From positions 620,001-684,000 of the forward strand of contig QPGO01000021.1 of NCBI GenBank assembly GCA_008632985.1: 64,000 nt of DNA. Direction: 5' to 3'. The notes below the pieces were generated by a model, which was given only the letters and a program-made list of their open reading frames with translations, was not told the DNA's origin and made no database searches. Every line of letters begins with the position of its first letter. Within the stretch, counting starts at the first letter, position 1. Origin of the DNA: Psammoneis japonica (lineage: Eukaryota). The translations under genes and the position numbers were made by a program. Positions 1 through 63,300 of the stretch are shown in pieces.

Positions 1-1340
1 TTGCAGCTTGACCCAGAAACAAAAACAAGGTTGCAGACCACATTGCATTTGTGCCAGGTGTGAGCTCTTGTCATGCTGCAACAAGGAATCATGGCACAGC
101 AGCAGACCATGCTTCAATTCCTTGCAAGTGCTGCTCTTTGACTGCATTTTCCACCCTGCTTTTTCTTTTTACAAGATCTGCATTGTTCTCCACTGAACCT
201 CATGGCAGAGTCAGAACTGAGCTCAGCATCACTGTCTTGCAATGAAGAGAGTTGTCTTCATCTCATCCCCCTCCTTCCATGCCACCACTGGCTGAATCAT
301 TTCCACCCACAGCCATGCTGTCCTCATTTTTGAGCCATGTGCAAGCCAAAATGTGGAAGGAAAGTCCTGTCATGACTTGGGGACACACAACCACTCAATG
401 CTCTTGTCTCAAAGCATGATGTGCAGCCCACATTTTGGGTGTCGCCACTCACAAAGAGAGCTGCAGTGTGGCAGTCTGTCTGCACGACAGTTTCCACTCT
501 GTGCACATTTTGTGCCATCATCTGTCCCCACCACCCCCCGGCTGGAGGTGGGAGGGAGGGACAACAGTGCAAAACAAGCACAGAAACTGTCCCACAGACA
601 GATCTCCACTGCAGCTCTTCTTGCAAGTGGCGACACCCAATTTGCTTTTGTCACAGCATGTGGCCAGACAGTTGCTGCAATGGCGCAATCTCATGGAAGT
701 CTGTTGCACATTGGAGGCAGTGTGCACCCAATGTAAGCTGTTTGTTCATGGGTGATTGTGTCAACTGTTGCTGTTGTTTGGTCAAGGCAGTGAGCATGCT
801 GGTGTGTCTTGAGGTGCATCACCCCGATCAGGTGAGTTGCTTGCAAGGCAGTCATGGGTCAATTCAAATGACACAGCTCTGTGGCTTTTTGCAACAAGGG
901 TGTGCAGAAATGTTGATCAGTCAATGCATGGAAAGTCTTCATCAATCTCTTTGATTGCTTTCCTCTGCTGGCCTTGGTGGTGGAGCACTCTGTGTTTGTC
1001 TGCATGCACCGCATCAATCAAATTGGGTTTTGTGCAGGAAGAAGTGCCACATGAGGGACCCACATGAAATTTGATTTCATCAGATCCAGACAAACCGCCT
1101 CACCTTTTGTCAGGACATTTTGCAGCAGTTGGTTCAATGAATGCAATGGACTCAACTTTGGGCACATCAATCATGTCGTCATGGAGGGTCGCAATTGGAG
1201 TCATGATCAGCGTCCTGCTGCAATCCTTGGCACGCCAAACCAGTGTTGTTGATGTGGAAATCAAGCTGCCATTGTGGAGGTGGATGAAGAATTGAACAAG
1301 ATTTTTTTGCAATTCGTTCCTGCTCCTCGTTGGGGAGAAC
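1..1340. other. CpG- and TpA-depleted, TpG/CpA-rich tract 1 (decayed sequence; extends beyond window start)
   Basis: Very few CG or TA dinucleotides; six-frame ORFs are Cys/His/Gln-rich, nearly Tyr-free and mostly end in TGA; composition normalises after ~1340. Confidence 0.85.
431..645. repeat. Imperfect inverted repeat (foldback, possible decayed MITE)
   Basis: TTGGGTGTCGCCACTCACAAAGAGAGCTGCAGTG...CTGTCTG..GACAGTTTC (~435-494) pairs with GAAACTGTC..CAGACAG..CACTGCAGCTCTT..AGTGGCGACACCCAA (~583-640); C-rich then G-rich centre. Confidence 0.8.
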
Positions 1341-2363
1341 CGCATGTTGCAAAAAGAAGGCCCGATTGCTTTTTATAATCAGAGCAAGAAACCAAGCAAT
1401 GACTGTGGAATGACAAAAGAAAATGTCGTGCTGCGGTCTAATTTAAAATGGCTCGCATTTCCCGCACTTCACCGTGTCATTTTGACCTGCCTCGGAACAC
1501 CCCCGAACACCCATGCGTTCGTCAAACCCTCACGCACAGGGGCTGTTAGACGGCTGTGAGAGCTGCACATTTGGCGCTTCAAATGCCACTCATCGACCTG
1601 AGCCCTGTTGTCAGGTCGAAAAAACCGCTAATTTTCGCTGGGGTCGGGCTTCTTATGGGAGATTAGCGGTAACTTTCTGGGAAATGCCGACAAGTGGCAT
1701 TTGACTGGCTATTGACATATCTACAGTCGTTAAGGTAAAAGTCGCGCATGGTCATACCTGTCGTTTAAGCATTCTAGGGTGTCTGGCGAACGGACAAAGT
1801 TCGACCGATCGCTGAAATTTTTTTTTGCGAACGCGCGCGCATTTACTACGATGCATCCGGGTTATTTTTATAAAAATTACGAGCTCCCAAAAAACAGACC
1901 GCAGCACGTAGATCCATCCTTAATGAAGTGATGAGACAAGTCAAAACAGAATTGGAGTGAATTCTTTTGATGTTTCCTTCATAGTGTGAGTCTTTGTGGT
2001 GGTCTCTTTCTCCGTTGGAACCTGCGCACAGTACCGTAGAAAATGAGTGTTGCTAATACAGTCACACAGTTGCGTTCGCCCTCAGTTCATTCCCACAGTA
2101 GTCGACACATCCCATTCAAACTCTTGGAGCGCTGAAGAGAGGCATGTGAGATTTTTCTGAGGTGGACCTCCAGTGACGTTGTTGCTCTCTAAGGCCTATG
2201 CTGGCGTAAAAGCCTTGCTTCGCTGGCTGAGGAGTTATGCCAGGCATCGCAAAGGCTTCCAAGGCCTCGAAAACGCTTCAAAATTAGTCTCTAGGAACAT
2301 GGTCACCTTCTGTAGTACCTCACCGGTTAGATGGTTTGTGACATAACTAGTCAATTGTCGAAA

Positions 2364-3689
2364 CTAGGTCTTCTTTTCCGGTAAAGCTTTAATGTCAGGC
2401 ATTGGGAACGTTTCCAACTTGGGAGCTAAGAACATCGGAGCCTTGAGTAGTTTCTCGCCTGCAACGCGATTTGTGTCATTGCAGGCCCAGTGTAAATAGT
2501 CATTGAAGCATTCCAGTTGCTCACCGTGAATGCCGCGGACTTCACAGTACGGTGATGCCACTTTGCGTTCACTTTTGTTCCGGCCGAACACAATCGCCAA
2601 GGGCATGGTTTGGGAAAATGACGACGTCTTACCTGCAATTACCACATCTGCGTGACTGAGCAGTGCCTGATCCATTACGGTATCTTCCCATCTTTGCACA
2701 CAAGAAGTTTGGTTGGGAGCTACTTTGTGCTTTCCAAACTCCCCAAAAAAGACACCTGCGCCTTCTGCAACTCGATTCTGCTCCCAGACAACAACCGGCA
2801 TGACGCCCTCCAGACCCGAACGAAAACGCTCAATGTAGGACGGCGTATCTGTCGCCATGAACAAGATCGCAGGATCCGTTCCACTATAGTTGTTAGTGAC
2901 AAGGCTCCGTAAGTTGTTTGTGACATTGGTTGCCCATGCTTCAGCGTCGAGAATTTCCCGCCTCTTCCTTGAAAAATCACCCGTCTCTCCGTTTCCAGCA
3001 CGTATATGAATGCCAAACACTACTTTGCCGACAAAGTGCTCCTCAACAAATGCATTGACATCATCACGGCGTCTAAATCGATTATGCAATGACGTATAGA
3101 ATTCCAAGTCGGTGGCAATCTTGTCTTCTTGAGGGCATAATCCACCCCGTCGATCTTGACCATTGAAGCCAGCCACTTCATTTGAGTAACTAACATACAA
3201 ATTCGTCGAATTGACATATGCTAGTTCATCTCTGGAGGGAGGATCAAAGAGCAAAGGGTAAATATCTAGCTTTCCACTTCCTACTCCTCCAGGTGTACAC
3301 CACCCCCAATGACCTTGCAACCTGAAACGCAACCGCTTTGCAACGTAATAGGCATTGGACATGCGGGCTAAACGATGTCCCAGGCCGCAACACGCCCGGT
3401 ATTCGACTGTTGAGAATTCCTCAATGCTGACATTGTTCATCATGTTGTTTGGTCCTTCATGTGTAGTGACGTTACGTTTCTGAGCCGAACCATCCGCTGC
3501 GGCTGTTGTTCGGATAGCTTCGATTCCTTGTTTCGGTTCCCGAGAGAAAGATGCTTGCTGAATCAAATTCTGCTGCCTTTTCAAAGCAACCAGAGTCATG
3601 TAGAGGACTATTATCAGCGGTGAAGGGCGTTTCAACCAACGTCGCCGCCCGCCCATTGCGATGTTCCCATCATCGTTTCTTTCCGGCAT
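2364..3689 (-). CDS. Type II membrane fucosyltransferase-like glycosyltransferase (GT-B fold, NodZ/GT23-like motifs), single domain
   Basis: Intronless ORF; N-terminal RRRWL + hydrophobic anchor; motifs CCGLGHRL, GIHIRAGNG, FMATD, DQALLSHADVVI; start taken at ATG 3689 (MPERND). Confidence 0.75.
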   Translation of the reverse strand: MPERNDDGNIAMGGRRRWLKRPSPLIIVLYMTLVALKRQQNLIQQASFSREPKQGIEAIRTTAAADGSAQKRNVTTHEGPNNMMNNVSIEEFSTVEYRACCGLGHRLARMSNAYYVAKRLRFRLQGHWGWCTPGGVGSGKLDIYPLLFDPPSRDELAYVNSTNLYVSYSNEVAGFNGQDRRGGLCPQEDKIATDLEFYTSLHNRFRRRDDVNAFVEEHFVGKVVFGIHIRAGNGETGDFSRKRREILDAEAWATNVTNNLRSLVTNNYSGTDPAILFMATDTPSYIERFRSGLEGVMPVVVWEQNRVAEGAGVFFGEFGKHKVAPNQTSCVQRWEDTVMDQALLSHADVVIAGKTSSFSQTMPLAIVFGRNKSERKVASPYCEVRGIHGEQLECFNDYLHWACNDTNRVAGEKLLKAPMFLAPKLETFPMPDIKALPEKKT

Positions 3690-5745
3690 CGTGAGAAAAT
3701 GAGGTGGTGAAAAACCGTTGTTTTGTGGCGATGAGATCACAACGACCGCCTCGCGCGATTTGGCGAGTTAGCTTCTTAAGTCCAATATTCGGATGCAAAT
3801 AAAGCATTTATAAATATATTTATTAGGAAATATTAATTAAGGAAAAAAAAGCTATCAGGTGAGGACCGTTGATAAAGACGTTCAACGGACAGTGTTTTCC
3901 CGCCATTTTTTTGCCCGCCAAAGATTAGGGTACCATGGGGGTCTTGACAGCGGCGCAGGCCTCTTTGATTGTTTGTTTCTCCCTTAGATATCAGAATGAG
4001 ACTTGCCTTCCAAACTTCGTTCTGCTCCGTTAAGACCAGGTTTCCTCAAACAGGTGTCAAGTTGCAGACCTGTTGAAACATTTGTGATTGGGTGGCAACA
4101 CAGTCATGTTCATGTTGGTAAAAAAAAACAGCACATGCCACAATGTGCCAAGAGTTTCTGACAGAGTATAGAGTATAGCTTGCCCTCCCCCTGCATCCGC
4201 ACTCGTCTGAGTCCAAAGGTGCTTGAGTCATTTTTGCTATGATTCTCGTTTGTTGTTGCTCTGGGGCGAAACGCTTTTTCGTTTTCTGGTACGAGATACC
4301 GACCGTCGAGAGAGCAATAGGATTCGAAAATCAGCACACGTACTGATCCATAGTCTACGGTGGGAGGTCTGAAGGAGTTGCCATTATTCTGCAAGAACGT
4401 TTCGGAAGGAACCGATTTCTCTTGAAAGTAAGTTCCGTCATCGCCACGCGGATCGGGCCCTGCAGAAGTCTCGCGAGAATGATACCTTCCACTTTGAGAT
4501 TCTTCTTCAACTGTGTTTTAATTTGATGTTGGCCTACGGTACAATTGTGGAGGAAAACAATAGCAGAAGCTCGGCAATCCGTGGATACGTCGGGGCTATG
4601 GAGGCGCGCCATGCTCGGTAGGTGTGTTGTTGCTCTTGAGGTGGTTGCAAAACCACTATAATTGGCTCTCGTTTCTCATAAAGTTATGCATATTTCGTTT
4701 TGTTCATTCTGCTTCCGCAGCATGTGTCGTTGGATTTAAACTGCAATCATATGAAAGGCCCGGTCCAGTAGGGCTCATGACGTCGCTTGTTCACTTGGAG
4801 TGCTACAAGTTCTTTTCTCACTGACTGTGATTTTGACCACAAGACGCAACGATTCAGTCATCGGTCATCCCAGTAGTGGCAATCAATGATGGTCCGAAGT
4901 GTATGGTTCAACGATGAATGATGACACGGCTCACTGTAAAACCCTACAGGCAAGAATCGTATAGTTGTTTCCACGCAAGTATTGAAAGGTCGGAAGGATT
5001 GATCCTCACTTTTGATAGTCTAGTTTTTTGCTCTATATTCTTCTGATAAATAAAGCGTCTTGGTAAGCTGTTCTTCGTTTCTATCCCTCAAAACATGCGA
5101 GCTGCTTTCTTATGAGTTTGTTGTGTATGCGTTGTTTCTTATACATCGCCAAATTGATGTGGATTGTATTTTCAACGTGATTATTCCGTAACGGAGACCG
5201 ATTGTTTCCATTTTGGCGTTGTTTTCTGACTTTCATCATCGGAGTGCGAGGCGATGGCGACGAGGAAGAAAGACAACGAGGTCGCGTTTTCGTGACCAAC
5301 GTGCCACCTCACTCAACGTTACTGTGCTATAACTCTTAATGTTATTAAGAGCATGAGGATGATAATGACATGACGGGAGTGAATCACAATGAGGATCGAC
5401 GTCCTGGAGCTCATAAGCGAGAAAAATAATATGGTGAGTCCTGTCTAAGTCCTGTGATGGTCCCAGTAATGTTCATCCCTCTGTACTAACCATTCATGTA
5501 TGTGAATCAAATCGGAATACTTACACTTTTCCCGCCTCATTTTTTGAAAAAGGGCGGTAGCACCAAGTTTACTTAGACGTAGTGTCTTTAAGTGAGCAAT
5601 TCGTCAATGACTGTCACTTCTTTGTTCAAGATCCTCCTCCTTTCGTTTATTCGAACTAAGCGGAAGTAAAACACCGTCATTCTTGTTGCTTCTGAACGTC
5701 CACAGCAACATTCGATTGCTACCGGTGCTATTGAATTTCATCAGA

Positions 5746-8781: not shown

Positions 8782-11700
8782 CTATGAAACGATATGATAT
8801 TCGTGTTGCAAACAATAATCTTTGACCCGGTCTCTGCTTATGGAAGGATGGCAGCTTTTCAAATTCTCTGAGCGATGTTGAATTTCCGGAATCGGAAATG
8901 TTTCTAGTCCTGGATCCAAGAACATGGGCATCTTCCGTGGTGATACGCCTGCTATGAGGTTTGTGTCATTGCAGGCCCAGTGTAAATAGTCATTGAAGCA
9001 TTCCAGATGCTCCCCGTGAATGCCGCGGACTTCGCAATACGGTGTGACCACTTTGCGTTCACTGTATTCGCGACCAAACGCAATCGACAAGGGCATGGTT
9101 TGTGGGAACGAAGATTCTTTACCGGCAATCACTACATCTGCGTGGCTGAGAAGTACCTGATCAATCAAGGTATCTTCCCATCTTTGCAGACACGAAGTTT
9201 GGTTGGGAGCCACTTTGCCCTTCCCAGCCTCCCCAAAAAAGACACCTTCACCTTCGGCGACTCGTTCCTGCTCCCAAGCAACAACCGGCATGACGCCCTT
9301 CAGATTCGAGCGAAAACGCTCAATATAAGATGGAGTATCTGTCGCCATGAACAAGACAGCTTGGTTATTTGTGCTGTTGCTGGCGACAAGGCTCCGTAAG
9401 TTGTTGGTAACGTTCATCCCCCACGCCCCGGCGTCGAGAATCTCGCGCTTCTTTATTGAAAAATCACCTGTCTCTCCGTTTCCAGCACGTACATGGATGC
9501 CGAGAACTAGCTTTCCTGCAAAGTGCTTCCTTATAAAAGCGTTGACTTGGTCACGGCGTTTGAATCGGTTTCGCAATGAAGTATAGAATTCCAAGTCGGT
9601 TGCAATCTTGTCTTCTTGAGGGCATTTTCCGCCCCGCCGATCTTGAGGTGAAAACCCAGCCACTTCGTTACCATAAGAAGTTCGCAATTTCATCGAAGTG
9701 ACATATTCCAGTTCATCTCTGGAGGGAGGGTCAAAAAGCGATGAGTAGACTTCCAATCTTTCATTGTTCTTGCCGCTGTCACACCAACCCCAAAAACCTC
9801 GCAACTCGAAGCCCAAGTTTTTCGCGACATGATATGCATTGGACATGCGCGCCAATCGATGCCCCAAGCCGCAACAAGCAGAATAATCAACGCTGGAATA
9901 CTCCTCCAAGCTGACGTCTTTCATACTAATCTGTGGGCGAGTTACAGTCTGTGAGCTAAATGCTGTGCCTTCTGGCTGACGTTCAGGTTTGATCTCAGGC
10001 ATCGGGAACGTTTCGAAGTTGGGAGCTAAGAACATTGGGGCCTTGATTAGTTTCTCGCCTCCAAAGAAGTTTGTGTCGTTGCAAGCCCAATGTTGATAGT
10101 CATTGAAGCATTCCAGTCGATCTCCGTGGATACCGCGGACTTCACAGTACGGCGTTGCCACTTTGCGTTCGCTCTTGTCACGACCAAACGCAATCGCCAA
10201 GGGCATGGTTTGGGAAAAAGATGATGTCTTACCGGCAATAACCACATCTGCATGACTGAGCAATACCTGATCAATCAGGGTATCCTCCCACCGCGACAAG
10301 CATTCCATTTGATCGGGAGCCTTTTTGTGAGCGCCATGTTGCCCGAAAAACACACCTTCGCCTTCGGGTATTCGATTCTGCTCCCATACAATAACAGGTA
10401 TGACATCCTCCAGATTCGATCGAAAGAGTTCAATATACGACGGGGTATCAGTCGCCATAAACAAGATGGCCGTGTCCTTTCCATAGTTATTGTTCGTCAC
10501 AAGGTTCCGTATGTTGCTGGTAGCGTTCATTGCCCAAGATTCTGCGTCGAGAATGTGACGTTTCTTGATTGCGAAATCCCCTGTCTCGCCGTTTCCCGCG
10601 CGAACATGAATTCCAAGAACTAGTTTTCCATCAAAGTGCTCCTTAACAAACGCGTTGACATCGCCGCGGCGTTTGAATCGATTTCGCAATGACGTGTAGA
10701 ATTCCAAGTCGGCTGCAATCTTGTCTTCTTGAGGGCATCGTCCTCCCCGTCGATCTTGACCCGTAAAGCCCTCCACTTCATTGCTGTAGCTAACATGAAG
10801 ATTCGTCGAATTGACATATGACAATTCTTCTCTGGATGGACGGTCAAAGAGCGACGCGAAAAGATCGACCCGTTCTGGACCCTCGCCGCAGAAACCCCAA
10901 CTACCTCGCAACTCAAAACGCAACTGTTTTGCAACGTAATACGCACAGGACATGCGCGCCAACCGGTGTCCCAAGCCACAACACGCCGAGTAATCGACAC
11001 GCGAATAATCCTCCGCGCCGATATCGATCGTACTATTCTGTGGGCTTGTTTCAGTAAGTGAGCTAGAGGCAGTACCTTCTGGACGACCTGCTACGACGCT
11101 TTTACTCTCGAGAGTCGATATTGTCGCTGATGCCTTTTCCCTTCGAGCTAACGGCGTCTTTTCAGGGTCAGGTTTGATCTCAGGCATCGGTAACGTCTGG
11201 AACTTGGGATGTAAGAACAACGGAGCCTTGATAAGTTTCTCGCCTTCAACGCGGTTTGTGTCGTTGCAAGCCCAATGTTGATAGTCATTAAAACATTCCA
11301 GTTGCTCTCCGTGGATGCCGCGGACTTCACAGTACGGTGTGGCCACTTTGCGTTCACTCTTGTCACGACCAAACGCAATCGCCAAAGGCATGGTTTGGGA
11401 AAAAGATGATGTCTTACCGGCAATAACCACATCTGCATGACTGAGCAATACCTGATCGATCAGGGTATCTTCCCAACGTGACAAGCATTCTGTTTGATCG
11501 GGAGCCTTTTTGTGAGCACCATGTTGCCCGAAAAACACACCTTCGCCTTCGGAGACTCGATGCTGCTCCCATACTATAACAGGCATGACACCCTCCAGAT
11601 TCGATCGAAAGCGTTCAATATAGGACGGGGTGTCAGTCGCCATGAACAAGACAGCCGAGTCCTTTCCGTAATTATTGTTTGTCACAAGTTTTCGTAGGTT

Positions 11701-13764: not shown

Positions 13765-14083
13765 TGTCACACTCTGAAATACGTAACAGGTGCACAACAA
13801 CACGATATCAACAACAGCAACAGCACAACACAAAAATGTCCTCACGGTCACGCGATGATGGTCACGGTCACCCCAAACGGGTCACAGACTGGAGTCAGTC
13901 ACGAGTCACGAAACGATTTATTCGATTGCATTTTCGCGCGGTTGCCTCGCACACCGCCCCGAATCTGAAAAACGCGAAGATCGCAAAATCTCAAATCGCT
14001 CGCCATGTGTCGCGTCGCAATGACATCCTCGTTGTCGTTCGGAGTTTTATTGAATCATCTGTTATTGATTGATACCCTTAACT

Positions 14084-40881: not shown

Positions 40882-41182
40882 CAAAGATGTTTGACGAAGC
40901 TGCCACTAAAGGGCTTGTGATTGATTCGTGCGAATCTGACGAAGATTCTGACCCACTGTAGATCGCAAGCCTGCGGCACGACCAGCTGTTGCCCCGGCCA
41001 GGATAGCTGTAAATAAGATGGAACCGCGCAGAGCCTCCATCCCCCACCCCGCTTTCCGGTGGTGAGTCTCGTTCTGAGGAACTTCCTTTTGTGGGCTCTC
41101 CTTCGTCGCCATGGTCTGCTGATTCCTATGAAGAATATTGATAAGGTAGCCTTCCGTTCAAATACTGTAGATGAAACCATTT

Positions 41183-44869: not shown

Positions 44870-45349
44870 TATGCTGACACTTATGAGTGAGAGAAGCAAT
44901 CGTAACTACAAGAAGGGCAGTCTATTCCAGCGACAGCGACGGCAACATCACCATTGTCTTCGCGTCTTCTATATATTTTATTGCTTTCGCCGAATTTTTG
45001 TGCATCGCGCGCGCCTACCCAGAATAAGTGCTGCACGTGTGAGGAGATGATGCGGCAAACGAAAAGATGAGATCACGAATTATTTCTTCGTTGGGTAATT
45101 CAAGTCCACTTCCCTAGTTAGTTGGGCTACAGCTAGAGCTGATAGGTACAGCATTGCCCCTTCTAAGAGTGCAGTTCGAAATTCGAGCTACCAGTGGAAT
45201 GTTACATAATTGGAGTCGACAAGCTCTGCATATCCGACTTCCTCTTCTATGCACTCTAGAGGGCATTTTTGAAGATGTCTTGAGCGAATACCAGATAAGC
45301 TCAAACTCAAAAAAGAAGTGAGGGTTGCTGCAACGAGTAGGCTAAAGAA

Positions 45350-46315: not shown

Positions 46316-46599
46316 TTTTTTCTACAATCTCAGGCGATACCTTACGACGTTCTTTTTAACATCTCGCTCTGATCTTATGGTGCGCTATTGTGCTGTCACT
46401 TTGAAACCTTAGGACATGTACAATGACAACGAGAATGACTGATGTCATCGCGCGCTGCATGTCCTCGAGCGACAGTAATCTGGAAATCTCGTCATCCCGT
46501 CGTCATCGTTGTTTTCGTGGTTTCGTCGAGTGATGCGCGACTCACTCGACTTCTCTTTGCGCACATAAACCCGCAGTGAGCTCAAATCCAGTTTGAACG

Positions 46600-51640: not shown

Positions 51641-51955
51641 ACACATGCCGCATGCCGGTACACGGACATTATAAGTTATCCATGTTTGAATATACAAATG
51701 TTTTTGGAATCAGCGATTCTATAAATATGTATACGTACTGTTTATAATATTCTACTTATTTTAGCGATACTAACGTTTGCCGCCAAAATCTGCATTCGCC
51801 CATCACATAAAAATCGGCGAACCACAACTTGACAAACAAGACGTGCCTAAACAGTATCGTACGTTGCTTTGCGACAGCTACTGTAGAGTACCAGTGCAAT
51901 TGTCGCGTTGCCGATATATTAAAGCGGCTTTAGAAACTTGAGGAGTTGATTGACC

Positions 51956-52663
51956 ATGGACTTTTCCACCGTCACTGCCGTACCAGATATTCTCGTGTCG
52001 ACGCCTTCGGAATTCGACGTACCTTTGGGACCCGAGGACGTGCAACTCGTCGCCGACTTTGATCAGGCATGGTTGGATTTCCTTCAAAAGTATCCGAATC
52101 TCATACCAAAGGGAGAAAAAACAGCTCAGATCAAAGCAATGAGAGACGGCGTGGCAGAAGCAAAAACGCAAAAAGAGGCTGTTGAAAAGGAACTCAAGAG
52201 TCAACTCGAACTCCTCAACAGCGCTTTTGAAAAGGTTGAAGAGTCTGAAACCAAAGAGATGGAGGAAGCCATTACCCATCAGAAACTGTTGAGGGAGCAC
52301 TTGCAAAGGAGCCTCAATCAGATCAATGATACGGCTGAGATTATGAGCGAAACTGAGCCGTGGGAACGCTTCTGCCATTCTCTGGAACAGGCCTCCGCGG
52401 AGGAGGAATCCAAACTTTCAAAAGCAAGCAAGCTAGTCAAGCCCTCAGCTCGGGCTTTTCACTTGATTGAACCATCTGAAAACGCCATTCATGATGATTT
52501 CCGGGCATACCAAGTGGATCACGCTCTTCTTAAGACCCAGGTCGCGATGCTGAAGAAAGAGTTGGAGCAATACAAACAGATGACGGAGACATCGCAGGTG
52601 GTTGGTCAGTTCTTGACTGAAAACAACATTTGGAGCATCATGACCAAACCAACGGACGTGTGA
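51956..52663 (+). CDS. Hypothetical coiled-coil protein
   Basis: ~235-aa ORF with E/K/Q-rich heptads. Confidence 0.75.
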   Translation: MDFSTVTAVPDILVSTPSEFDVPLGPEDVQLVADFDQAWLDFLQKYPNLIPKGEKTAQIKAMRDGVAEAKTQKEAVEKELKSQLELLNSAFEKVEESETKEMEEAITHQKLLREHLQRSLNQINDTAEIMSETEPWERFCHSLEQASAEEESKLSKASKLVKPSARAFHLIEPSENAIHDDFRAYQVDHALLKTQVAMLKKELEQYKQMTETSQVVGQFLTENNIWSIMTKPTDV

Positions 52664-53055
52664 AGAAGATTCTAGTGCTATGTTGGCAACAAGATTGAAA
52701 GAAGCGGCGGTTGTAAGTTATTTGTAGTTTCTAAAGAAGTGTATTTTTTGTTCATACCGCACAAGCTCTTGCATCTTTAGACGAGTGCTTCGCTTTGCAA
52801 GGTACAGTAGTTTACTGAATGCAGGGCCTTCCAACAAGCATGGGAAGGAATACAGTAGCTATGGCTTAGCCCAATGAAGACGACTGTCGTCGGTCCGTCC
52901 AAGCCAAAGTGACGTGATGTCTGTGTCTGTACTATTTAATTCTGTGCACAGTACGAACGTACGGTATCTTTTCGCCGCGCAGATGGAAGCGGTAAAAGGA
53001 ACCCGAGCAGAGAACATCTTGTTGCTTGTTATTCGCTTATCTTCCATTCGTCACG

Positions 53056-54207
53056 ATGGCTGCTCCAAATGCTTTGCCACCGGTGCCACCGCCAGTTCCT
53101 GACATAAAGCGTGCAATGCTTGATCAGAAGATTACGTTGATTGAAACTGTGAACGGCACAGAGAGACTGAATCATGATCAGACAGTTGATCTCATGCGCA
53201 GAGAGGACCCGCAGTATGCCTATCGCATAGACTGGCGCACAGTGAGTCCTTTGGATATTCGTGATAGAGGTTCAACTTTCCAAGTAATTTTACTGCAGAG
53301 GGAGAGGGAGCATCAAAATCATATTCAACAGCATGATGCGCCCATGGTCTTTCGAAATTCTGGAAACCGTTTATTCATCAAGCGCTTGGATCGACGTTAT
53401 ACCGAACATCCCGACCGCATCGTTCTTGAGAATTGTTTTACAGAAGTCGGAATCATGCAGCATTTTGCCGGTAACGGAACGCACCTCATGTCTTGCTTTG
53501 AAGCGCTATGGGATGATGATTACCTTTACATTGTGATGCCATTAATGGAACATGGCGACTTAGAGCGACATGTTAACTGGTCGCGGCGTTTTGGAGTTGG
53601 TCATTTCAGAACAGATGGCGGTATCGTTATGCCGGGTGTGCATACAGTTGCAATGAGAATCGTGGAAAGCCTAAGTTATTTTGCCAGCCACAGGCTGGTG
53701 CATCGTGATCTAAAGCCCGAGAATATCCTCGTGAATGCAGCTGCCTTACTGTTTCCTCTGGCAGACTTTGCCCAGACGTTGCGCATAGATCAGGATGCTG
53801 AGCTAATAAAACTTGCACATGGTGGTCTTGTTGGTGGCTCTGAGACGCACATATCTCCAGAAAGATTGTCGAATCATGCGTTCAATGGCAAGGCTGACGT
53901 CTGGGCTTTTGGCGTCGTCCTTTTCAACATGATAACCGGGCATCGATTTGATGGTCCATCATCTAGAAGCGATCGTCTGTACCACTTTTTCATTAGAAGA
54001 AGAGGTCTGACGAACAGGGATATCCGTAATCGAAAGCTTCGACTTTTCAGGTTGAGGCACATACGTAATGATCCGTTACTCAACTGCATAAAGGCTGTTG
54101 AAGACATTGGTGGTCCGGGGCGACACCTCTTGCAGTGGCTTCTAGAGGAAAAGCCAGGTGATCGACCAACGATAGACCAAATTCGAGGACATCGATTCTT
54201 CGGATAG
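53056..54207 (+). CDS. Ser/Thr protein kinase (divergent, CAMK-like)
   Basis: LFIK, HRDLKPENIL, ADFA (DFG variant), ISPE, DVWAFGV, RPT; no canonical Gly-rich loop. Confidence 0.9.
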   Translation: MAAPNALPPVPPPVPDIKRAMLDQKITLIETVNGTERLNHDQTVDLMRREDPQYAYRIDWRTVSPLDIRDRGSTFQVILLQREREHQNHIQQHDAPMVFRNSGNRLFIKRLDRRYTEHPDRIVLENCFTEVGIMQHFAGNGTHLMSCFEALWDDDYLYIVMPLMEHGDLERHVNWSRRFGVGHFRTDGGIVMPGVHTVAMRIVESLSYFASHRLVHRDLKPENILVNAAALLFPLADFAQTLRIDQDAELIKLAHGGLVGGSETHISPERLSNHAFNGKADVWAFGVVLFNMITGHRFDGPSSRSDRLYHFFIRRRGLTNRDIRNRKLRLFRLRHIRNDPLLNCIKAVEDIGGPGRHLLQWLLEEKPGDRPTIDQIRGHRFFG

Positions 54208-54330
54208 GAGAAGGGCGTGGCCCAAAAGTTGTTCAGAAGTTGAAAAACAAATAATATACTACACTTGGGCATTTTGCTTTCTCAATAGAGAATAACGATC
54301 ATTAACATTGCACTTATATTCGTAGGCTTG

Positions 54331-57300
54331 CTACAGGACTCGATCAAGTTGTAAATCAGTTTCTTCAAGAGCCAGGTGCAGCCGGTGACACTGTGTTTCG
54401 AGTTTCGCGTGGTGCGATTCTCCCAAATGATGTGCTTTCTTAGCAATCTCCACCCCTTTTTGTTCTGAAACCTGCGCCCGAACTACTCGGGATCCCTGGC
54501 ACATGAAAACCAAGCATCTTGCGGCAAGCCACGCATTGTGAAGTCTCACGCGAGCACGGTCGAGCGTCCGTAGCAAAATATCGACGATATCCATTTGAGC
54601 CCCTTCCGAGCTTTTCACGAACCTCTCCAAAACGGATTCTGCTGACAGTAGAGGGTCGGAGTCAGTATCGGATTGAAATCCAAATGATGTGAGATTTTCC
54701 AGTGCGAATCCCAACGCTTCTAGTGCGCGATTGAACAGATACATCGCTTCGGATTTGTATGCTGGAAAGCCATCGCTACACTTTGTGAATTCCTCCATCC
54801 ACTTGTCTTCTGCATCGATACCAGCACGAATTGTATTCAGGAGGTTACGGTGCAGTCCAACCCTAGTTGTTGAGAATTCTCCAAGAAGCAGTGCACGACT
54901 CATAAGAAGAGCACTTGAGAGCACTGATTTCCGAGCGTTAGCCAGAGTACAGACTCCTTCCATACCACGACGCCTAGAATCTGGAGTATCCGTCTCGAAA
55001 ATACCATGAACAATATTAAGCGCCAGTTCAGACTCTGCTCCCTTATCCAATGCAGCTTCAGAAAGTTCGGACTCAGAGTCCTCATCTAACAACCGTAGGT
55101 ATGAAATGCTTTTTTCGTCGTCTTCAAAATCGGTGTGCTCAAAACGACCCACAACGGCATTTAGAATATCAGTAGAATATATCTGAAATAAGACAGAGTC
55201 GCCCGCAATATGACGCACTTCAGCTACGACTTCCTTCCTATCCTTTGCAATCCACAGTACCAAACGAATCTCGACATTATCAGACGTCAGCACCTCCACA
55301 GAAACCTGCGGAGGGAAACGAGGATGAGTAGGTTGAGAAATTCAAACCACGGGCTGCTATGCTGTGTAGACATAATAATCAACTTACGGGATCACTGAAA
55401 AATTGTGCCTGGAAGCTCAAGACTCGGAAGCACTCATTTAGTCGCGAACGAATGTCACCAAATTCTTCCACCTGAATGTTTCGGGTAAGTTCCAGAGGAT
55501 AGGAATCGAGACGCTCCTTCAGCAAACGCTCCTCCCATCTCGTATCTGGCTGGCCCTCGATTGGAACTAGTTCTGTTGTATCAAGGGACTCGACCTGAAT
55601 GTCTATCTGTTGAAGAGGCCGATTGCGATCTGGCATGCTGTCTTTGAATTCCCGAATGAGTATGACTCTGAGCATTGGAACTCCAAGTGCAAGGTCTTTC
55701 AGAAAGATGGACGGAATCTTATCTGGCACGTTCAAGCCCTTTGCATCGATGACAACCACTGTTTTCTGCTGAAGTAACGCAGCGAAATGTCCCTCCTTAT
55801 TTCGTAGACCCTCGGCGCCTTTGCCATCATTGAACATATCTAATACACGCATGAGAATAACGCCCAAGTCGTCGTCCTCGTTGTCGTGCTTATAGGGAAC
55901 GGGCAACCAGACAAGATGCTCCCTGGGAAAGTATCTTCCGTGGTGAAAACAGGCTGTCTGTACAAGGCTCACCTTCCCGACTCCTGCTGGCCCCACAACG
56001 TGAATGATATGAGGACTCTTGAGTGCTGCTAGAATCTTTCTGACTTCCATCTCCCGTCCTTCAGGATGCCCTTGTGGAAGTGGGACAAGCTTTGAAAGAA
56101 ACGAATATTTCGGTCGACGGGCAAGAGGTTGGTCATCCGAAAAGGGCACATGGTGATTTTCGCCGTCCGGAAGCAGTACGATATTTCCTGCATCATGACG
56201 ACCTTCGGTTGGGAAATCCGGTTCACTCGCGACAAACTGTCGAGCCAATTGAAAGGCATCATCCAGGAGTCTTCCATTCCCCATGGCTTCGTAGAAAGCT
56301 TGCGTGAAACCAACCAATATTCTTTGGTCGATGGCACCTTGACAACATATCACATGGCGAGCACCCATTTGCACAAACGTCTCTCCCGCCGAACGCGAAT
56401 CACATGCTGAAATGAATACAAACTCCAAATTATTCCCGCCAGCGTGAATCCAGTCTTCAAGGTCTCTAGTTAGCATTGGAAGCAATTCTCCAGAGCCGTC
56501 GTCGAGCGCAATGTGAGTGGAGTCGCCGAAGCATGAAATGTGAATCATGTGCCCTTCGTCTTGAACTAGAAACTGTAAAATATTATCTTGCGTAGCTGAC
56601 ACAAAATCAATGTCCACGTTAACTTGGGCATTCACGACAGCTTCTCTCATAATCTCTTCTTCTAGCACCGCAACAATGTTGGGTTTCATGATGAAATCAT
56701 TCACACCGTGCACCGAGACCAAAGGTGACACTTGGAATACTGTAAGCGAAATATCATTGGGCTCCGAGAATGTACTTCCTGGTTCTGTCACCGAGTCACC
56801 ATCAAAAATCTCTTTTGCTCCAACATGAGATTCATCACCTGTCACTTTCAGATGATGGGATGGTCCAGGATTGAGTTTCTGTGCCTCTTTTGAGAATGTA
56901 CTCGTAGTCGTCGTGGGTGAGTCAGACGAAGGAGTGGAGATTTCTTGGACATGCACAAACTCTGTTTCCTGAGGCTTGCACCAGCGTCCAAATTGGTCTG
57001 GGTGCCGACGTCGCAGTCCCAACTTTTCACTAAAGAGAAGCTGGTATAGTCTTTTATTCATGGTTGGGAACCCAGGATAATCCAACAATACTTTACGCCA
57101 CGCCTCTTGCTCCTCTTCTGTCTGATCCTTTGAGTAGTCATAGTTACAATAGGGCGATGTGTTATCAAAATGATACGTACAGTACCAGTGCATCCCATAG
57201 CTTTTTCGAGTCGGAAGTTTCATTGCATACAATGCTTGGGCTCGATCCATGGGTACGCCAAAAGCCATTATGCGTTCAATCCTACGTGCTTCAAAGATGG

Positions 57301-57589
57301 TTAAGATCTTGTCTTCAAAGCTTTCGGCCGCCTGATTTCCAAGTTCATCGCGTACCCTGTTCCATAAATTGACGAGATCATAGACAAGAGCAAGAATGAC
57401 TTTTCGATCGTTGTTGAGAGAGACGGATTTTGGGTCTGCCCGGTCACGTTTGGCTTCGTACAGTTTTTTTGCCCATTCGTCAATGTCCTGAGATCCTTGA
57501 TCGTTAGAGAGTCGTTGTAACGCTTCTAGAATGCGTGGATCATTGTACTGTTGCTTGAGCGCAATCAACTGAGCGAGCGCCCTCTCCAT
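54331..57589 (-). CDS. Multidomain protein: CHAT-like domain + P-loop NTPase + helical (ARM-like) C-terminus; intron 55306-55387
   Basis: IHISCFG, VFISACDS, GARHVIC, FTQAFYEAM and AFQLA are CHAT-like; GREMEV...GPAGVGKVS is Walker A; GT-AG intron joins FSDP|VSVEVL in frame. Confidence 0.75.
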
Positions 57590-57679
57590 GGTTGAAATGA
57601 CTCGCTTACAAAAAATACTTCTGCAAGTTACAAAGCACTCTGAACTCTACTGATTTTTCACGAGCTCGAATTGACTCAC

Positions 57680-58195
57680 GTGAATCTAGAGGGTCCACAG
57701 ATATGCATTGAAAGGATAAAAGAGGGAGGTGCTGAAAAGGAAAAAAGGGATAGGAGAAAGGGAAAGACAGGAGTTTCAAGCTGCAGGATGCGCCATTGTA
57801 TGTTGTCGCAAAAGTTGCTTGTTTTTCTCGAACGTGTATGCGACGCACGAAAGACGCGGTTAACATCCGGGTTTTTCACGACACGACGCATCATGCGCAG
57901 GGGTGTGCCATGCTGCCGCACTCAACCTCATCATTGAGACAGCTCCGCTTCGCCAGAACCCAACACCCCATTGGTTCTTGGACGCCTCCACAGTGCAGCA
58001 GTGAGCAAGGCAGAATGAAACGCAGGGGGGGTGTTTGGCCTTAAATTGAGCATCTCTTGTGTCTGGGTTTGTCGTGGGCAATGCTGCTTGCAACCATGTT
58101 GTGATCGGCTGGCAGCAACTTTTTGGTGTTTCCAGTGAGTGGTGTTGAGAACACAGATGAGCAAAAAAGAGCACCACAAGCAAGAGCAACCATGG
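57680..58195 (+). repeat. Long imperfect direct repeat, copy 1 (copy 2 at ~63205-63720)
   Basis: Colinear shared blocks GAGGGTCC..TTGAAAGGA..AGAAAGGGAAAGA.AGGAGTTTCAAGC, TAACATCCGGGT, TCTCTTGTGTCTGGGTTTGTC and CAAGAGCAACCATG. Confidence 0.8.
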
Positions 58196-61100
58196 AAAAG
58201 CACTGGAAAGTCCAAATCATGGGACAGTGCCAAAATCACAGGGAAACTGTGGTTGCATTTTGGACTTTGCTGTGCTGAAAAGAGAAGATCTCTGAGAGAC
58301 CAGTGCTTGGAGGAGTGCATCACAGTTGTCAATTGTGACATGATCTCTCCTTTTGTGCCAAGATGTCATGTTGTTGCACCTGGCCAACAGCCACTCCTCC
58401 ACCACATGAGAACAGTGGGTCTGAAGGATGATCATCTTTTGTCCTTGTGAAGATTGCAGAGCTTTTTCCTGATCTGATGGTGCCAGTTTTCCAAGAAGAA
58501 GCAGAAATGAAAGACTGTTTGGAGTGTAACAAGCTCAAGCAGCCAGCAGAGATGGAGCCACAGTTGACTCCTCTTCCCTCAAACAACATGTTTGAAAACA
58601 GCACCTGACACAAGTCCATTGGGCACGTGAGAGTGCTTGCAACTGCTTGTCTTTCCTCCCAGAGCATGCTGTTTTTCACATGGAGATTGCCAGTGTCATT
58701 GCTGAGGAGACTCTGAGTGTGAAAATGGGGCACCTGCCACTTGAAAAAGAAGAAAGTGCAAAAACACAAATGGCCAAACTCTCCTTCTTTTGGGGTGCAA
58801 CACTTGTGTCCACAAGGAGGAGTTGGTGGATGTGGTCTGCAAGCCACAGCTGATTTTCTTGCATGTGTTTCTGGCATGTGGAAGGGGCAGCTGCCAATTC
58901 CAGCAACATGGTGTTGTGCACAGGGGCTTTTGTGCAAAAGAATGACCAAGGATGACAATGGCTGCATGCAAGAGGCACCAGCCAGCAGTGCTCAAGTCTT
59001 GCATTTTTCACAATGTAACATCAGAGAGACAAGGGCCAGCAAGGGGGCAGCAGAGTTGTTGTAACATGCAAAGGGCCAGGACATGGCAGTGTGTGTGTGT
59101 TGCAATTTTCTGGGGCTGAGTTTGTGCAAACATGTGTTGTGTGCAATGGCAAGCCATGCCCACCTTGAAATGAGGAGCTGCCAGGTGATGAGGAATGTCA
59201 GCTGTGCCTGGAGTGCTTCAGAGGCACTGTGCTTGGTGCTGGTGAAGGCAGTGGAGCAGACAATCTTGATGAAGACAGGAGGTGTCCAAACACATTGCAA
59301 TGCATGGCCCCAACCTCCTCTGCCCATGAATGCAGCACACGGCCCCAAAGTGTTGCCACTCTGTGAGGACATGCAAAGGCCACTTTGTTTGTGGATTTGA
59401 AGATGAAATCAATGGCAAGACATGTCCTCCTCTGTTGACAACATCCACCACCCACACATGTGGCAGCCCTGGCTTGTTCAATTGAAAGCCATTGATGAGG
59501 ATGAGCTGCCCAAGCTTGTTGCAGATGAAGACATGCTGCTTGCTTCAATTGCAGCTTTGGCTGACATTCTGACATCTCTTGCATGACTCAGAATCTGAAA
59601 GCCAAGCAATCACAGGAAGCTTTTGCTCAAGCATGTTCTTCTGCAGAGTGTCACAGGCATGGCTGAGAAAGCCAGCCAGAGTTCACACAAGCAAGAAGTT
59701 GTGCAAGAAGAGAGGCACTCAACACATGACCAATGCTGGTGCTCTGGACACTCAGCTCTGCTCTTGGAGCCATCACTCCTGCCAACCAACACAATGGCAA
59801 GGAGCATCTGATTTCAACCACAACATTGCTGAAATGTTGGAAAGGCACAGTGCACTCAATGCTCATTGCTGGACTGGGTGTGTGAATGAGTTTGCACCAA
59901 AAAAACATGGAAAAGGTCATGCTGTTTGTGCACACAGCTTTGGCCAAAACAAGGCCTGGGGGAAACAGCTGCCACTTTGAAGTGGTGGAGCAGTGTTGTC
60001 TCATGTCCTTGCAAGCCTTTGCAGTCAGCTTGAAAAGGAAAAAAACCATCAGTGGTCAGGTGAGTCCTTCACTTAAAAAAAAAGATGAAGGATGACATTG
60101 CTCAGTTGCCCAAGACTTTGGGTCNNNNNNNNNNNNNNNNNNNNNNNNNNNNNNNNNNNNNNNNNNNNNNNNNNNNNNNNNNNNNNNNNNNNNNNNNNNN
60201 NNNNNNNNNNNNNNNNNNNNNNNNNNNNNNNNNNNNNNNNNNNNNNNNNNNNNNNNNNNNNNNNNNNNNNNNNNNNNNNNNNNNNNNNNNNNNNNNNNNN
60301 NNNNNNNNNNNNNNNNNNNNNNNNNNNNNNCCATGACCCCCACCCCAAATCTCAGCCTGAGCTCCTTTCTAGCTTCTGACACTCCACAAACATCATGCCA
60401 CCATGCCCAAAGGGATGTCAATCACTCCAGAAATTTTCACGAAGCACCAAACCCTCCAAAAGGTGTTGCCATTGAAGGGCCAAATCCAATCAGATCTCAG
60501 AAAAGCTTTCAGTCACCTCTGCCAATGTTGACTCTGATGTTGGGCTGGGGACACAGCAGACCACAAGATTGTGCTCTGGCTGGTGTCATGCAGCTGCCAC
60601 AAGTGCCAAAGAGCCTGCATTGTCTCCTCACATGCAACACACACCACTTGTATGAGAAGGATTGCTTGAGAGCAATGGCACTTTTTCACAAAAGGAAGCA
60701 ATGGCTGGTGATGCTGTGGGCCAGTGCCAGGAAATGCAAAAGCTTGGGCTCTTCTTGCTCATTCCCAAGGCAGCAAATTGCTCCTGAGCATTTTCCAATC
60801 TAAGCCATCTGTTTGAGCACAGCACAACTGTGTGTGAGTTGGCAATTGGGTGAAATGATGAAGACGGCAACCCACACAACTCTTGTTAAAGAGAGCTTCC
60901 ACTCATGTGTGAATTTTCATTTGACCAAACAATGGCACATTGGGAGAGCTGGGAGATGGAACATGTTGCAGATTGCAAGGCATTGGAAAAGGCATTGCAA
61001 TGCCAACTGAAGAAGCTGGAGCACTGTGGGCAATGGCCAATGCATGCATCATCTGACAAGGTGGCAAAGTTCTGGAAACACCAGCAGAGCCAACACTCTG

Positions 61101-63300
61101 ACCCAACAAATGGCACCAACTTGTGGTGCATGATGCATCCAATGTGTGTGTGGGAGACCCAAGTGCTGGGGATGATGTGAACTGACCACAGCACAGTGCA
61201 TGTTGGGGCATGTGCTTTGCCAAAGCTGGGGAAATGCCACACATCTCTGCAACTGGATTTTTGGCCTTCCTCTTTTCACTGGTCATTGTGATTGTGACCA
61301 GCAGATTCAATTTGCAAAGAGACACTTGAGCTGCAAAAATTTCTTGCTGAGAACAACACATCTGCTGGAGAAGAGAGCACAATTGTAGAGCACCTGCCCC
61401 TTGAACAGGCTGTCTGTGCAATGAAAAATTGGTGCCACAATGGAGCTGCACAAGTGTGATGGCTCAAAAGCACAGCACTGGTGCTGCAATGAATTGGCCA
61501 AATGAAAGAATGCAATGGCAATTCTGATGCTTCCAGTTTAAACGTGCAGCTGTTCAGCAAGCTGTCACCATGAGTCCACGTGAATCAATGTGCGCTGCAG
61601 TTGCTTTGCTGCAGCAGGGTTCATCTGTGATGGAAAAGTTGTCCCAGTGGCTGCTCTAACTTCAAAGATGTCCCCACCCACAGCAGCATTTGTTTGAGCT
61701 TGAAAATGCATCTTATTTTAAACTCATTTTGGTTTGGTGGCTCTCAGCCATGGTGGTTCTTGCATGTGTGTGGCATGGATCTGGTGGGTCACACCAACAC
61801 TGTCTCTGTTGTTGTTTTCCTGGTGATTGATTGGTTGAGTGCAAAATGCTTGCAACATTGTCATGTGCCAAGCTGCCTTGGATGAGACTGCTTGCATTGA
61901 ACACAAAACAAAACATTTGTTCATTCTTCACTTGTGACAACAATGATGTGAAGCTAACGCAGAAGTGCAACAGCAGTGGGCCAGCACTGCACACACACTT
62001 GTCTGACTTTTGCTGGCAAAGTTGAAGCCAAAGCATTGTTGCACACATGGAAGATCAGTTTGACAAGATTGCTTGTCAGCTGCAGTGCAAAACTGGTTCA
62101 GAGTTGTTCAACAATTTCAAAGAGATTGTTTGCACAAAAGGAAAATGGTTGAATGTTGCATCAAGGGAGCAGTCTGTGGGACAAACACACCAGAAGGAGC
62201 ACTTTGGCAAAACAATCTGTGCTCTGCCTTTGCAACACGGCATCATGAGGCCAGATGTGCACCATGCTGCAAAGGCAAGTTTGCCAGTGTGCAAGAAGTC
62301 CTGTTTTTGCAAAACTCCTGTGCTCACATCAACTGCAATGGAAATCTTGTTTCTTTGTGCTGACTGCTCATGTGGCACTGCTCTCCCTGAACTCACAGAG
62401 CAGGAGATGAAAAATGCACTTTTCTGCTTGTTCAGTTGGGCTGGTGGCACAACCCCACTTGCACACACACCCAAGTTTTTGGAGTTGCAAACCTGCATGG
62501 GCAAAATGAGAAAAGATTTTCATCAATGGAAAGAATGAAAAAGATTGCAAGAAAGGATCCACCAGGCCAGCAATGTTGGTGATGGGAGGCAGAAGTGGCA
62601 GCCAGCAGAGCAAGCAAAATGGGTGCAGACAAAGCAAGAGCAGCAAGGGCAAGTGAAAGCTGGCTGAGCAACCCTTGTCTCATTGTCTTTTGGTGCTGAG
62701 GATGTCATGTTTGGGCACAATGTCATGACAATCTGAGTGACAACTCAAGTTGTTTGGGTCCATCAAATCGGCAAAAGGAGCGGAGCATGCTGCCTGTGGT
62801 GGTCATGACAACCATGACAACACATGTGGCTGGGTCTGGTGGTCACAGACATGACAGGAGAGGATGTTGGAGCAGCCATGGTGGTGGCCAAGGAGGCTGC
62901 TGCCACAACAGCACTTGCAGTCATTGTGCATTGTGGCACAGTCACACAGCAACACAGCGGCATGCTGCAAAACAACGGCGGAGGCAGCCCAGCCCGGATG
63001 GCAGCACACGACCAGCACCACTTCAATGGTCAAACTTTTGATGCTCCAGATGTGAGCTGCCACTGTTGTCTTGTTCCTTGAGCACAAGAATCAACTGAGC
63101 AAGTGGGCCCTCTCCATGGCTGCAATTCCTCCACTTGCCAAACAGCCACAAAGGGCAATCTCCTCTGAACTTTGCCAATTTTTTGAAAACTCGAGCTGCC
63201 TCTTTCACGCATTTGGAGGGTCCTTCACAGAAGACGTGTGTTGAAAGGACAAAATGGGGGAGGTGTCGAAAAGGGAAAAAAGGGAGATGAAGAGAAAGGG
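57900..63300. other. CpG/TpA-depleted tract 6, probably transposon-derived
   Basis: Dinucleotide composition; bracketed by direct repeats; weak gag-like segment at 62047-62538. Confidence 0.85.
60125..60330. other. Assembly gap (N run)
   Basis: 206 N characters. Confidence 1.

Follow-up and report, generated by a model that had tools for sequence, protein, structure and literature searches.

Paired loss of CpG and TpA by mutation in place across kilobase-scale tracts of a diatom genome

In the diatom Phaeodactylum tricornutum, repressive domains of kilobase scale carry H3K27me3, H3K9me2/3 and DNA methylation on silent elements (PMC4504042), and CG methylation of silent elements is maintained there by DNMT5a (PMC9998398). 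Three further systems are of interest here: repeat-induced point mutation (RIP) of fungi, a transition hypermutation of duplicated DNA (PMC3318451), the joint suppression of CpG and UpA in RNA viruses and cytoplasmic RNA (PMC3829696), and the substitution of 12-68% of thymidine by 5-hydroxymethyluracil in dinoflagellates (PMC6313786). Here we describe six tracts of the diatom Psammoneis japonica in which nearly all CpG and TpA dinucleotides have been converted to TpG and CpA. They lie in a stretch of 64,000 bases (assembly GCA_008632985.1, contig QPGO01000021.1, positions 620,001 to 684,000), hereafter the window, in whose own numbering all positions are given. The tracts are described from this one 64-kb window.

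Tracts were called with a two-state hidden Markov model (HMM) run over the 15,286 pyrimidine-purine (YR) steps of the window, and the fraction of YR steps being CG or TA was used as an index. The model returned six tracts with a summed length of 21,463 bases, or 33.5% of the window (Table 1). An initial annotation of this DNA had proposed six CpG- and TpA-poor tracts covering about one third of it, and the HMM edges fall within about 300 bases of the positions it gave. The index is 0.049 within tracts and 0.395 elsewhere. Bimodality of the index had been set beforehand as the test of a two-compartment structure, with a unimodal distribution as the contrary outcome; in non-overlapping 250-base windows two Gaussians describe the distribution better than one (Bayesian information criterion -336 versus -164), with means of 0.051 and 0.389 and weights of 0.32 and 0.68.

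In 500-base sliding windows, observed/expected ratios (O/E) inside the tracts are 0-0.3 for CpG, 0-0.1 for TpA and 1.7-2.1 for TpG/CpA, and between tracts they are about 1.0, 0.55 and 1.15, respectively, with G+C between 0.47 and 0.50 along the whole window. Pooled over the tracts, CG stands at 0.16 (0.99 in the remainder), TA at 0.04 (0.56) and CA/TG at 1.83 (1.17), in line with the proposal that flanking genes use CG and TA freely, and AA/TT is raised to 1.27. The two losses cancel in base composition: pooled G+C is 47.7% in tracts and 47.2% in the remainder, and the tracts are hidden from G+C scans as the initial annotation had anticipated. The density of YR steps is equal in the two compartments (0.238 per base in tracts, 0.239 outside), as expected if the process consists of transitions only. 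Counts of TG and CA are balanced in each of the six tracts, and no strand bias is seen.

The initial annotation had also held that all tracts share one signature. All six are indeed poor in both dinucleotides; the uniformity does not extend to tract 2, which is graded. Separate change-point fits place the left limit of its TA loss at 14085 (support 13787-14288) and that of its CG loss at 14777, and across the shoulder between them sliding TpA O/E runs from 0.34 to 0.16 while CpG O/E runs from 1.38 to 0.86. A blip of 94 bases with normal composition (15376-15469) interrupts the same tract in the HMM. More CpG remains in tracts 2 and 3 than in the others, and its loss is nearly total in tracts 5 and 6 (O/E 0.0-0.1).

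The origin of this composition can be read from host DNA that is duplicated across a tract edge. The segment 31289-33277 is a diverged duplicate of 41182-43019 (blastn aligns 31698-33277 with 41389-43019 at 76% identity), and this first copy crosses into tract 4 at 32681. The second copy is normal throughout and holds an intact open reading frame (ORF) with a Lipase_3 domain (42405-43208, minus strand), of which the part inside the tract is a dead paralogue (Table 1). Inside tract 4, only 2 of the 27 CpG of the normal copy are kept, and 24 read TG (11) or CA (13); none of its 19 TpA is kept, and 17 read CA (10) or TG (7). Outside the tract, in the same duplication, 34 of 45 CpG and 22 of 47 TpA are kept, so that retention in versus out of the tract is 7% versus 76% for CG and 0% versus 47% for TA. 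Apart from AC/GT, whose letters overlap with CG and TA, the remaining dinucleotides are retained at 62-80% in both compartments. With the 43 CG/TA conversions subtracted, differing sites amount to 79 of 573 (13.8%) inside and 141 of 955 (14.8%) outside. Other changes are not accelerated in the tract, and the process is specific to CG and TA.

In purine/pyrimidine coding the dead lipase copy remains 92.8% identical to its partner, from which it also differs by ordinary changes and indels. Its 41 conversions are interspersed and split 17 to 24 between the strands, a balance that argues against an RNA or single-strand intermediate. Nine TG-to-CA double changes in this copy were considered as a sign of cycling via CG or TA, a notion we dropped because decay in the normal copy combined with full conversion in the tract explains them equally well. 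Within the duplication, about 205 bases at 31490-31697 are absent from the partner at 41388/41389 and form an indel.

A diverged direct repeat at the two flanks of tract 6 provides a second comparison, in which each copy lies partly within the tract and partly in normal DNA (Table 1). In the reciprocal parts, TA is kept at 0 of 6 and 0 of 5 sites and CG at 2 of 7 and 0 of 3. The right copy marks the 5' end of a dead CHAT/STAND paralogue with its body in tract 6. The initial annotation had suggested that CG and TA are driven to a TG/CA sink, and the paralogue comparisons bear this out: the loss is mutation in situ and not the inherited composition of one mobile element.

The edges of the tracts are sharp. 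A single 100-base bin takes the proportion of CG among YR steps from 0.31 down to 0.056, and for four neighbouring genes the first ATG lies 365, 377, 381 and 387 bases from the tract edge, a near-constant distance which suggests that a zone the size of a promoter, about two nucleosomes long, is protected. A mini-tract of 126 bases with normal surroundings (Table 1) lies 348 bases upstream of the first ATG (3689) of a NodZ-like gene (2364-3767, minus strand). The left edge of tract 4 coincides with that end of the dead lipase copy which carries the stop codon; the adjoining duplicated DNA stays normal. As for boundary elements, the window contains no tRNA gene and no Rfam family, and none of its three small tandem repeats is at an edge.

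TpA loss and CpG loss do not end at the same place. When the two are fitted separately, TA depletion reaches further out than CG depletion at 8 of 11 edges, with a median overhang of 105 bases (Wilcoxon p=0.015) and one of 692 bases to the left of tract 2. Directly outside the edges, eleven bins of 100 bases together contain 11 TA against 43.8 expected (0 of 20,000 resamplings as low) and 78 CG against 60.3 expected; promoters not facing a tract show no TA depletion. Residual TA makes up 0.6-2.0% of YR steps in every tract, residual CG 1.6-8%. The low TA floor in all tracts together with the overhang implies that TpA loss is faster or earlier, and independent of what protects or exposes CpG.

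The sites that remain also follow different flank rules. Surviving CG favours G/C flanks (GCGC at 2.55 times its normal share, ACGT at 0.49 and TCGA at 0.48). Surviving TA favours Y-TA-R (TTAA 6.55) and not R-TA-Y (ATAT 0 of 136-equivalent, ATAC 0.11): among the 64 surviving TA, 18 are TTAA and 13 are CTAA/TTAG, and R-TA-Y is nearly missing. On one reading, residual TA sites may be fresh C-to-T changes at pyrimidine-C-A rather than survivors, a candidate dipyrimidine, sunlight-like signature.

We consider it probable that two coupled processes act in one silent chromatin domain. The tracts would be repressed chromatin domains between active diatom genes, and indirect pointers to heterochromatin may be seen in edges that keep a constant distance from the starts of genes, on their upstream side, and, in one case, fall where a dead gene copy ends. 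The CpG half would result from deamination of methyl-cytosine in methylated DNA, which is established chemistry. It fits this origin in being symmetric and near complete, in leaving survivors best in G/C-rich flanks and in stopping at promoters. The TpA half would be a separate A:T-to-G:C transition activity with a strong preference for TpA, acting over the whole silent domain plus a shoulder of about 100 bases in which CpG is spared, and its conversion would be completed faster than CpG decay. Candidates are a modification of thymine or adenine, or an adenine deaminase; enzymes of the TadA/ADAT family typically prefer U/T-A. When all CG and TA in the normal DNA of the window are converted in a simulation, the CA/TG O/E comes to 1.93, which matches the excess observed. 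Three other causes of TpA loss were considered and rejected. G/C-biased conversion would remove AA, TT and AT too, yet AA/TT rises; RIP creates TpA; and selection cannot purge 21 kb of junk.

Rather than two processes, a single activity, for example an oxidase of TET/JBP type, might act on the two self-complementary steps in which each strand bears a 5-methyl-pyrimidine, namely methyl-CpG and TpA, turning methyl-C into T and T into C. This would account for the common class of products and for domains that are shared to within about 100 bases. Since TpA is in this sense always 'methylated', it also predicts an earlier and fuller loss of TA and CpG-sparing shoulders, including the 692 bases at 14085-14776. 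Oxidised thymine would here miscode as C. Thymine hydroxylation occurs in other protists (dinoflagellates, PMC6313786), and among the literature listed the reports of hydroxymethyluracil concern dinoflagellates or are unrelated, with none from a diatom. The survivors follow different flank rules for CG and TA, and we know of neither such a base nor such an enzyme in diatoms; we regard one activity for both steps as unlikely.

What the tracts contain was assessed at the level of proteins and of repeats. The Pfam scan covered 143 of the 194 stop-to-stop tract ORFs of at least 70 residues, the 51 omitted being the shortest (less than about 80 residues) and those spanning the gap of N. None of the 143 reaches the curated cut-off; nine have sub-threshold matches only (E 0.0017-0.0092), and no reverse transcriptase, integrase, transposase or capsid domain is found among them. 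One ORF of tract 2 (15183-15695, plus strand) holds a MYND-like zinc-finger remnant below the cut-off (zf-Mss51 E=0.063, zf-MYND E=0.62). The longest tract ORFs are not longer than in composition-matched shuffles. Three-base periodicity was measured on the purine pattern, which is immune to transitions: the null fits 29 tract windows (Kolmogorov-Smirnov p=0.83) and is rejected in 64 normal windows (p=1e-14), with a difference between the two sets at p=1.4e-4 (Mann-Whitney). A codon-position purine score proved too weak for choosing reading frames.

Individual frames were also searched. No homologue was found for ORF 14082-14567, in a search limited to longer proteins, or for the read-through frame 60396-61553 (minus strand). 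The read-through frame 58332-59813 (minus strand) gave two matches at E of about 1e-5 against 1.84 billion representatives; both are internally repetitive proteins aligned in 5 and 11 short stretches, and we judged them spurious. When the 247 ORFs of the normal parts were compared with the tracts by tblastn, the lipase paralogue, the flank repeat of tract 6 and one marginal match (E=6e-4) were the only results, and relaxing the search to E up to 1 added nothing except noise. The tracts are non-coding, mostly single-copy DNA made of dead host-gene copies and unrecognisable sequence, which agrees with the earlier statement that they contain no intact recognisable gene.

No tract resembles another by blastn, either in nucleotides or in purine/pyrimidine coding, and in neither coding are there terminal repeats at the tract ends. 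The outcome named at the outset as speaking against the two-compartment view, that the tracts form one family of transposable elements with this composition already in its active consensus, did not occur. Some repeats exist within tracts: a self-complementary stretch of 206 bases in tract 1 (435-640), an inverted pair in tract 3 (21085-21171 with 22161-22249) and a direct pair in tract 4 (34886-35049 with 35309-35477). These intratract repeats are diverged and stand out better when coded as purine/pyrimidine (87-91%) than as nucleotides.

For the right-hand part of the window (44001-64000, 20 kb including tracts 5 and 6), contigs from read sets were compared. The first, X1, is a public read set whose contigs were assembled separately; it may be the assembly's own sample, so its independence is partial. 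The part of tract 6 at 60631-62413 attracts 17 X1 contigs, of which five are 90-95% similar and nine match it over part of their length only; all listed loose contig ends fall in this part. Six continuations of 30 letters are listed for those contigs, and neither CG nor TA occurs in them, where about 16 would be expected at normal density, and tract-like DNA thus appears to be present at further genomic loci.

These relatives elsewhere, with continuations likewise devoid of CG and TA, could be taken to mean that the tracts are old mobile-element or endogenous viral insertions that were CG- and TA-poor on arrival, for instance retro-elements under RNA-level selection, as joint CpG/UpA suppression is known in RNA viruses and cytoplasmic RNA (PMC3829696). 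Such an origin leaves the conversion in place of a host lipase paralogue and a host promoter repeat unexplained. The tracts are mutually dissimilar, lack element domains in 143 ORFs and terminal repeats, and have the same word depth as their single-copy flanks; moreover, a TA O/E of 0.04 leaves no tyrosine codons and hence no working coding sequence. We hold this origin to be quite improbable for the tracts.

Duplicated genes outside the tracts serve as a control. Tandem NodZ-like copies, 89.5% identical over 2.2 kb, retain normal numbers of CG (161 and 151) and TA (83 and 81). Duplication is not the trigger, since these tandem copies are untouched and a single lipase copy is mutated, over only part of the duplicated length. 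The same facts bear on a RIP-like, duplication-triggered defence with a different dinucleotide rule. Two tracts do hold copies of duplicated host segments, and RIP itself hypermutates duplicated DNA through transitions (PMC3318451). Against this stand the unaffected NodZ copies, the partial mutation of one lipase copy with a tract edge that cuts across the repeat, the uniqueness of most tract DNA within the window and the destruction of TpA where RIP creates it; together they leave a defence of this kind very little credence.

The word depth of the X1 contigs is the same over tracts as over flanks (about 60-70), and of the four edges compared three are bridged (46692, 57954 and 63184); one contig, 44001-48420, spans the left edge of tract 5. 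Over the 20 kb they differ from the window at eight bases and two small indels. This agreement rules out scaffolding chimeras and copy-number artefacts, not every artefact of chemistry. Seven of the eight base differences fall in the two tracts, all of them transitions at YR steps, in six events: TA/CA twice, TG/CG twice, CA/CG once and one TG/CA double change. Five of these events involve the gain or loss of a CG/TA step, of which only 70 are present across about 10 kb of tract. Both small indels are in tract 5 (47112 and 48844). There are signs in these differences that the residual CG/TA sites are the unstable ones and that erosion is continuing. At three X1 joints (51288/51399, 57007/58586 and 62165/62386) the short sides measure 21-30 letters, and these were left uninterpreted.

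That the tracts are an artefact of sequencing, base-calling or assembly, or a foreign or chimeric insert, is scarcely credible: modified bases can give systematic base-calling errors in some long-read data and three X1 differences are CG in the contig versus TG or CA in the window, but the X1 contigs reproduce the tracts with only seven base differences and two small indels in about 10 kb, at equal depth and across three of four edges, and the dead lipase copy shows ordinary changes and indels relative to its partner.

Several points weigh against two coupled processes in silent chromatin. The direction of change was measured on about 900 tract bases that have a normal partner (the lipase copy and the parts of the repeat), and its application to 21 kb is an extrapolation. 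Silent chromatin and methylation are, in this organism, inferred. We know of no process, chemistry or enzyme that gives TpA-specific A:T-to-G:C change in double-stranded nuclear DNA. The simulation that reproduces the CA/TG excess predicts a G+C of 45.5%, an ApT of 0.91 and a GpC of 1.09, whereas the tracts have 47.7%, 0.79 and 1.33; the mismatch reflects either another bias, which could be a milder A:T-to-G:C pressure at steps other than TpA, or different ancestral DNA. Some tract DNA, such as 60631-62413 with its relatives, may derive from mobile elements, and the X1 differences could be alleles or assembly errors instead of new mutations.

In its furthest form, the proposal would be of an undescribed mutator in this diatom lineage, acting across whole chromatin domains and turning methyl-CpG and TpA into TpG/CpA. 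Its TpA arm would be a natural A:T-to-G:C editing of double-stranded nuclear DNA, by a new thymine or adenine modification or a DNA adenine deaminase, and it could serve as a duplication-independent genome defence or means of gene erasure. Its product would be G+C-neutral, repeat-free 'dark' DNA, perhaps one third of the genome. We put this forward tentatively, as a conjecture that is more doubtful than not.

The coordinates of the tracts and of the features discussed are collected in Table 1. The genes between tracts are of ordinary eukaryotic kinds and, besides the class-3 lipase, encode a dynamin-family GTPase, a protein kinase, a CHAT/STAND protein and a cyclophilin; the GTPase has its best named relatives, at 45-50% identity, in the diatoms Skeletonema, Cyclotella, Nitzschia and Seminavis, which marks the window as nuclear diatom DNA. 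The tandem NodZ-like copies belong to a single open frame of 1,699 residues (8782-13881, minus strand) with four NodZ-like fucosyltransferase domains, the copies being up to 89.5% identical, and a fifth copy (2364-3767, minus strand) lies 5 kb away at 77-79% identity. This array is either recently expanded or consists of several genes read as one frame.

A second read set, X2, labelled 'DNA?', yielded contigs at 44001-44953, 45281-46422, 53031-57746 and 63464-64000; none of those listed lies on tract 5 or 6, missing cover that is not evidence of silence. One X2 contig skips 82 bases (55304-55385, minus strand), joining 55303 to 55386 with GT..AG ends on the minus strand. The CHAT/STAND ORF 55379-57646 and ORF 54331-55341 probably form a single gene with an intron, and the X2 reads probably come from RNA of the genes beside the tracts. 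A third set, X3, has no contig on 44001-64000.

Table 1. Positions of the tracts, their associated features and the duplicated segments in the window (counts are of dinucleotides within the HMM tract).
Feature	Position	Strand	Remarks
Tract 1	2-1310		Truncated by the window start; CG 12, TA 2, TG+CA 315
Mini-tract	4037-4162		126 bases (HMM); 1 CG/TA among 34 YR steps
Tandem NodZ-like copies (control)	9983-13397	-	89.5% identical over 2.2 kb; NodZ domains
Left shoulder of tract 2	14085-14776		TpA depleted, CpG still normal (change-point fits)
Tract 2	14777-18173		Graded; CG 61, TA 16, TG+CA 735
Tract 3	20453-23095		CG 50, TA 8, TG+CA 570; TpA depletion continues to about 23292
Tract-external part of duplicated segment	31289-32680		Normal composition; 85% identity to partner
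Tract 4	32681-36805		CG 32, TA 7, TG+CA 934
Dead class-3 lipase copy in tract 4	32690-33277	-	Paralogue of intact ORF 42405-43208 (-); tblastn E=9e-45
First ATG / tract edge	37192/36805
First ATG / tract edge	46315/46692
Tract 5	46692-51449		CG 19, TA 16, TG+CA 1095; TpA depletion continues to about 51542
Left copy of direct repeat	57543-58140		Start and upstream part of CHAT/STAND gene 55379-57646 (-); 57970-58140 in tract 6
First ATG / tract edge	57589/57954
Tract 6	57954-63184		CG 20, TA 15, TG+CA 1199; TpA-depleted zone 57864-63397; N gap 60125-60330
Right copy of direct repeat	63066-63699		Gene-start part 63066-63184 in tract 6, remainder normal
First ATG / tract edge	63565/63184

Among environmental relatives, 37 diatom contigs (238,514 bases) carrying homologues of the GTPase gene show no tract: no 500-base window has an index below 0.15 and the minimum is 0.20, unlike the window, where a third of the 500-base windows are below 0.15. 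The contigs are short and gene-centred and make weak evidence, which gives a hint that the process may be lineage-specific. A full-text search of the literature available without subscription returned no account of CpG and TpA eroding together, whether in diatoms or in other organisms, and a term look-up in the main diatom transposon paper (PMC2806351) met none either.

If the pattern holds more widely, it would matter in several ways. A near-total, domain-restricted loss of TpA by A:T-to-G:C change lacks a described mechanism, and its cause could prove to be a novel modification of DNA or an enzyme that naturally edits adenine in DNA. The tracts escape the usual screens, being unchanged in G+C, single-copy at the level of words and unlike any repeat family, and one third of a genome could pass as 'intergenic' in this way. 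With TAA and TAG gone in tracts, gene finders will call spurious long ORFs. The erosion would be a long-term record, legible in sequence alone, of which DNA is silent and of where promoters halt the silent state (at a constant 365-387 bases here), and the chromatin boundaries of a major group of ocean phototrophs could be read from their genomes. The tracts show dead genes being erased whole without deletion, which bears on the turnover of gene families in diatoms.

Compared with described systems, RNA-level suppression of CpG and UpA resembles the tracts in that both dinucleotides are under-represented together; it differs in being moderate selection on expressed RNA, whereas here non-coding host sequence has been mutated in place and almost completely. 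Thymine modification in protists, as in the base J of kinetoplastids, offers a possible route to a T that is chemically distinct by context and chromatin state. We know of no such modified thymine in diatoms, and TpA mutational erosion has not been attributed to these bases, which makes them a lead only. The repressive domains of diatoms are similar in size (blanket domains of at least 2 kb there, 1.3-5.2 kb here) and in their siting between active genes; the tracts differ in not being recognisable transposons and in being known from sequence alone, and no dinucleotide erosion is reported for those domains in the portions of the source consulted (PMC4504042).

The closest parallels are two mutational processes. 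RIP shares with the tracts a dense, context-specific transition hypermutation that wrecks dispensable DNA and leaves neighbouring genes intact. It makes C-to-T changes only, mainly at CpA, raises TpA, lowers G+C, requires duplication and strikes both copies, and it relies on a cytosine methyltransferase homologue of RID/DIM-2 type during the sexual phase. Here, in contrast, A:T-to-G:C changes occur, TpA vanishes (O/E 0.04) with G+C unchanged, near-identical tandem genes are spared and one duplicate is mutated over part of its length. Decay of methylated CpG shares with the tracts the production of TpG and CpA in similar proportions on both strands (11 and 13 of 27) and a loss limited to kilobase-scale, non-expressed-looking DNA with sharp edges at promoters. 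In that process other dinucleotides are spared; here TpA disappears too, to a greater extent than CpG and across a somewhat wider area, and the CpG loss itself is near total. The erosion described here differs from RIP in RIP's defining traits and exceeds CpG decay, and the pattern points to a previously undescribed mutation process confined to silent DNA.

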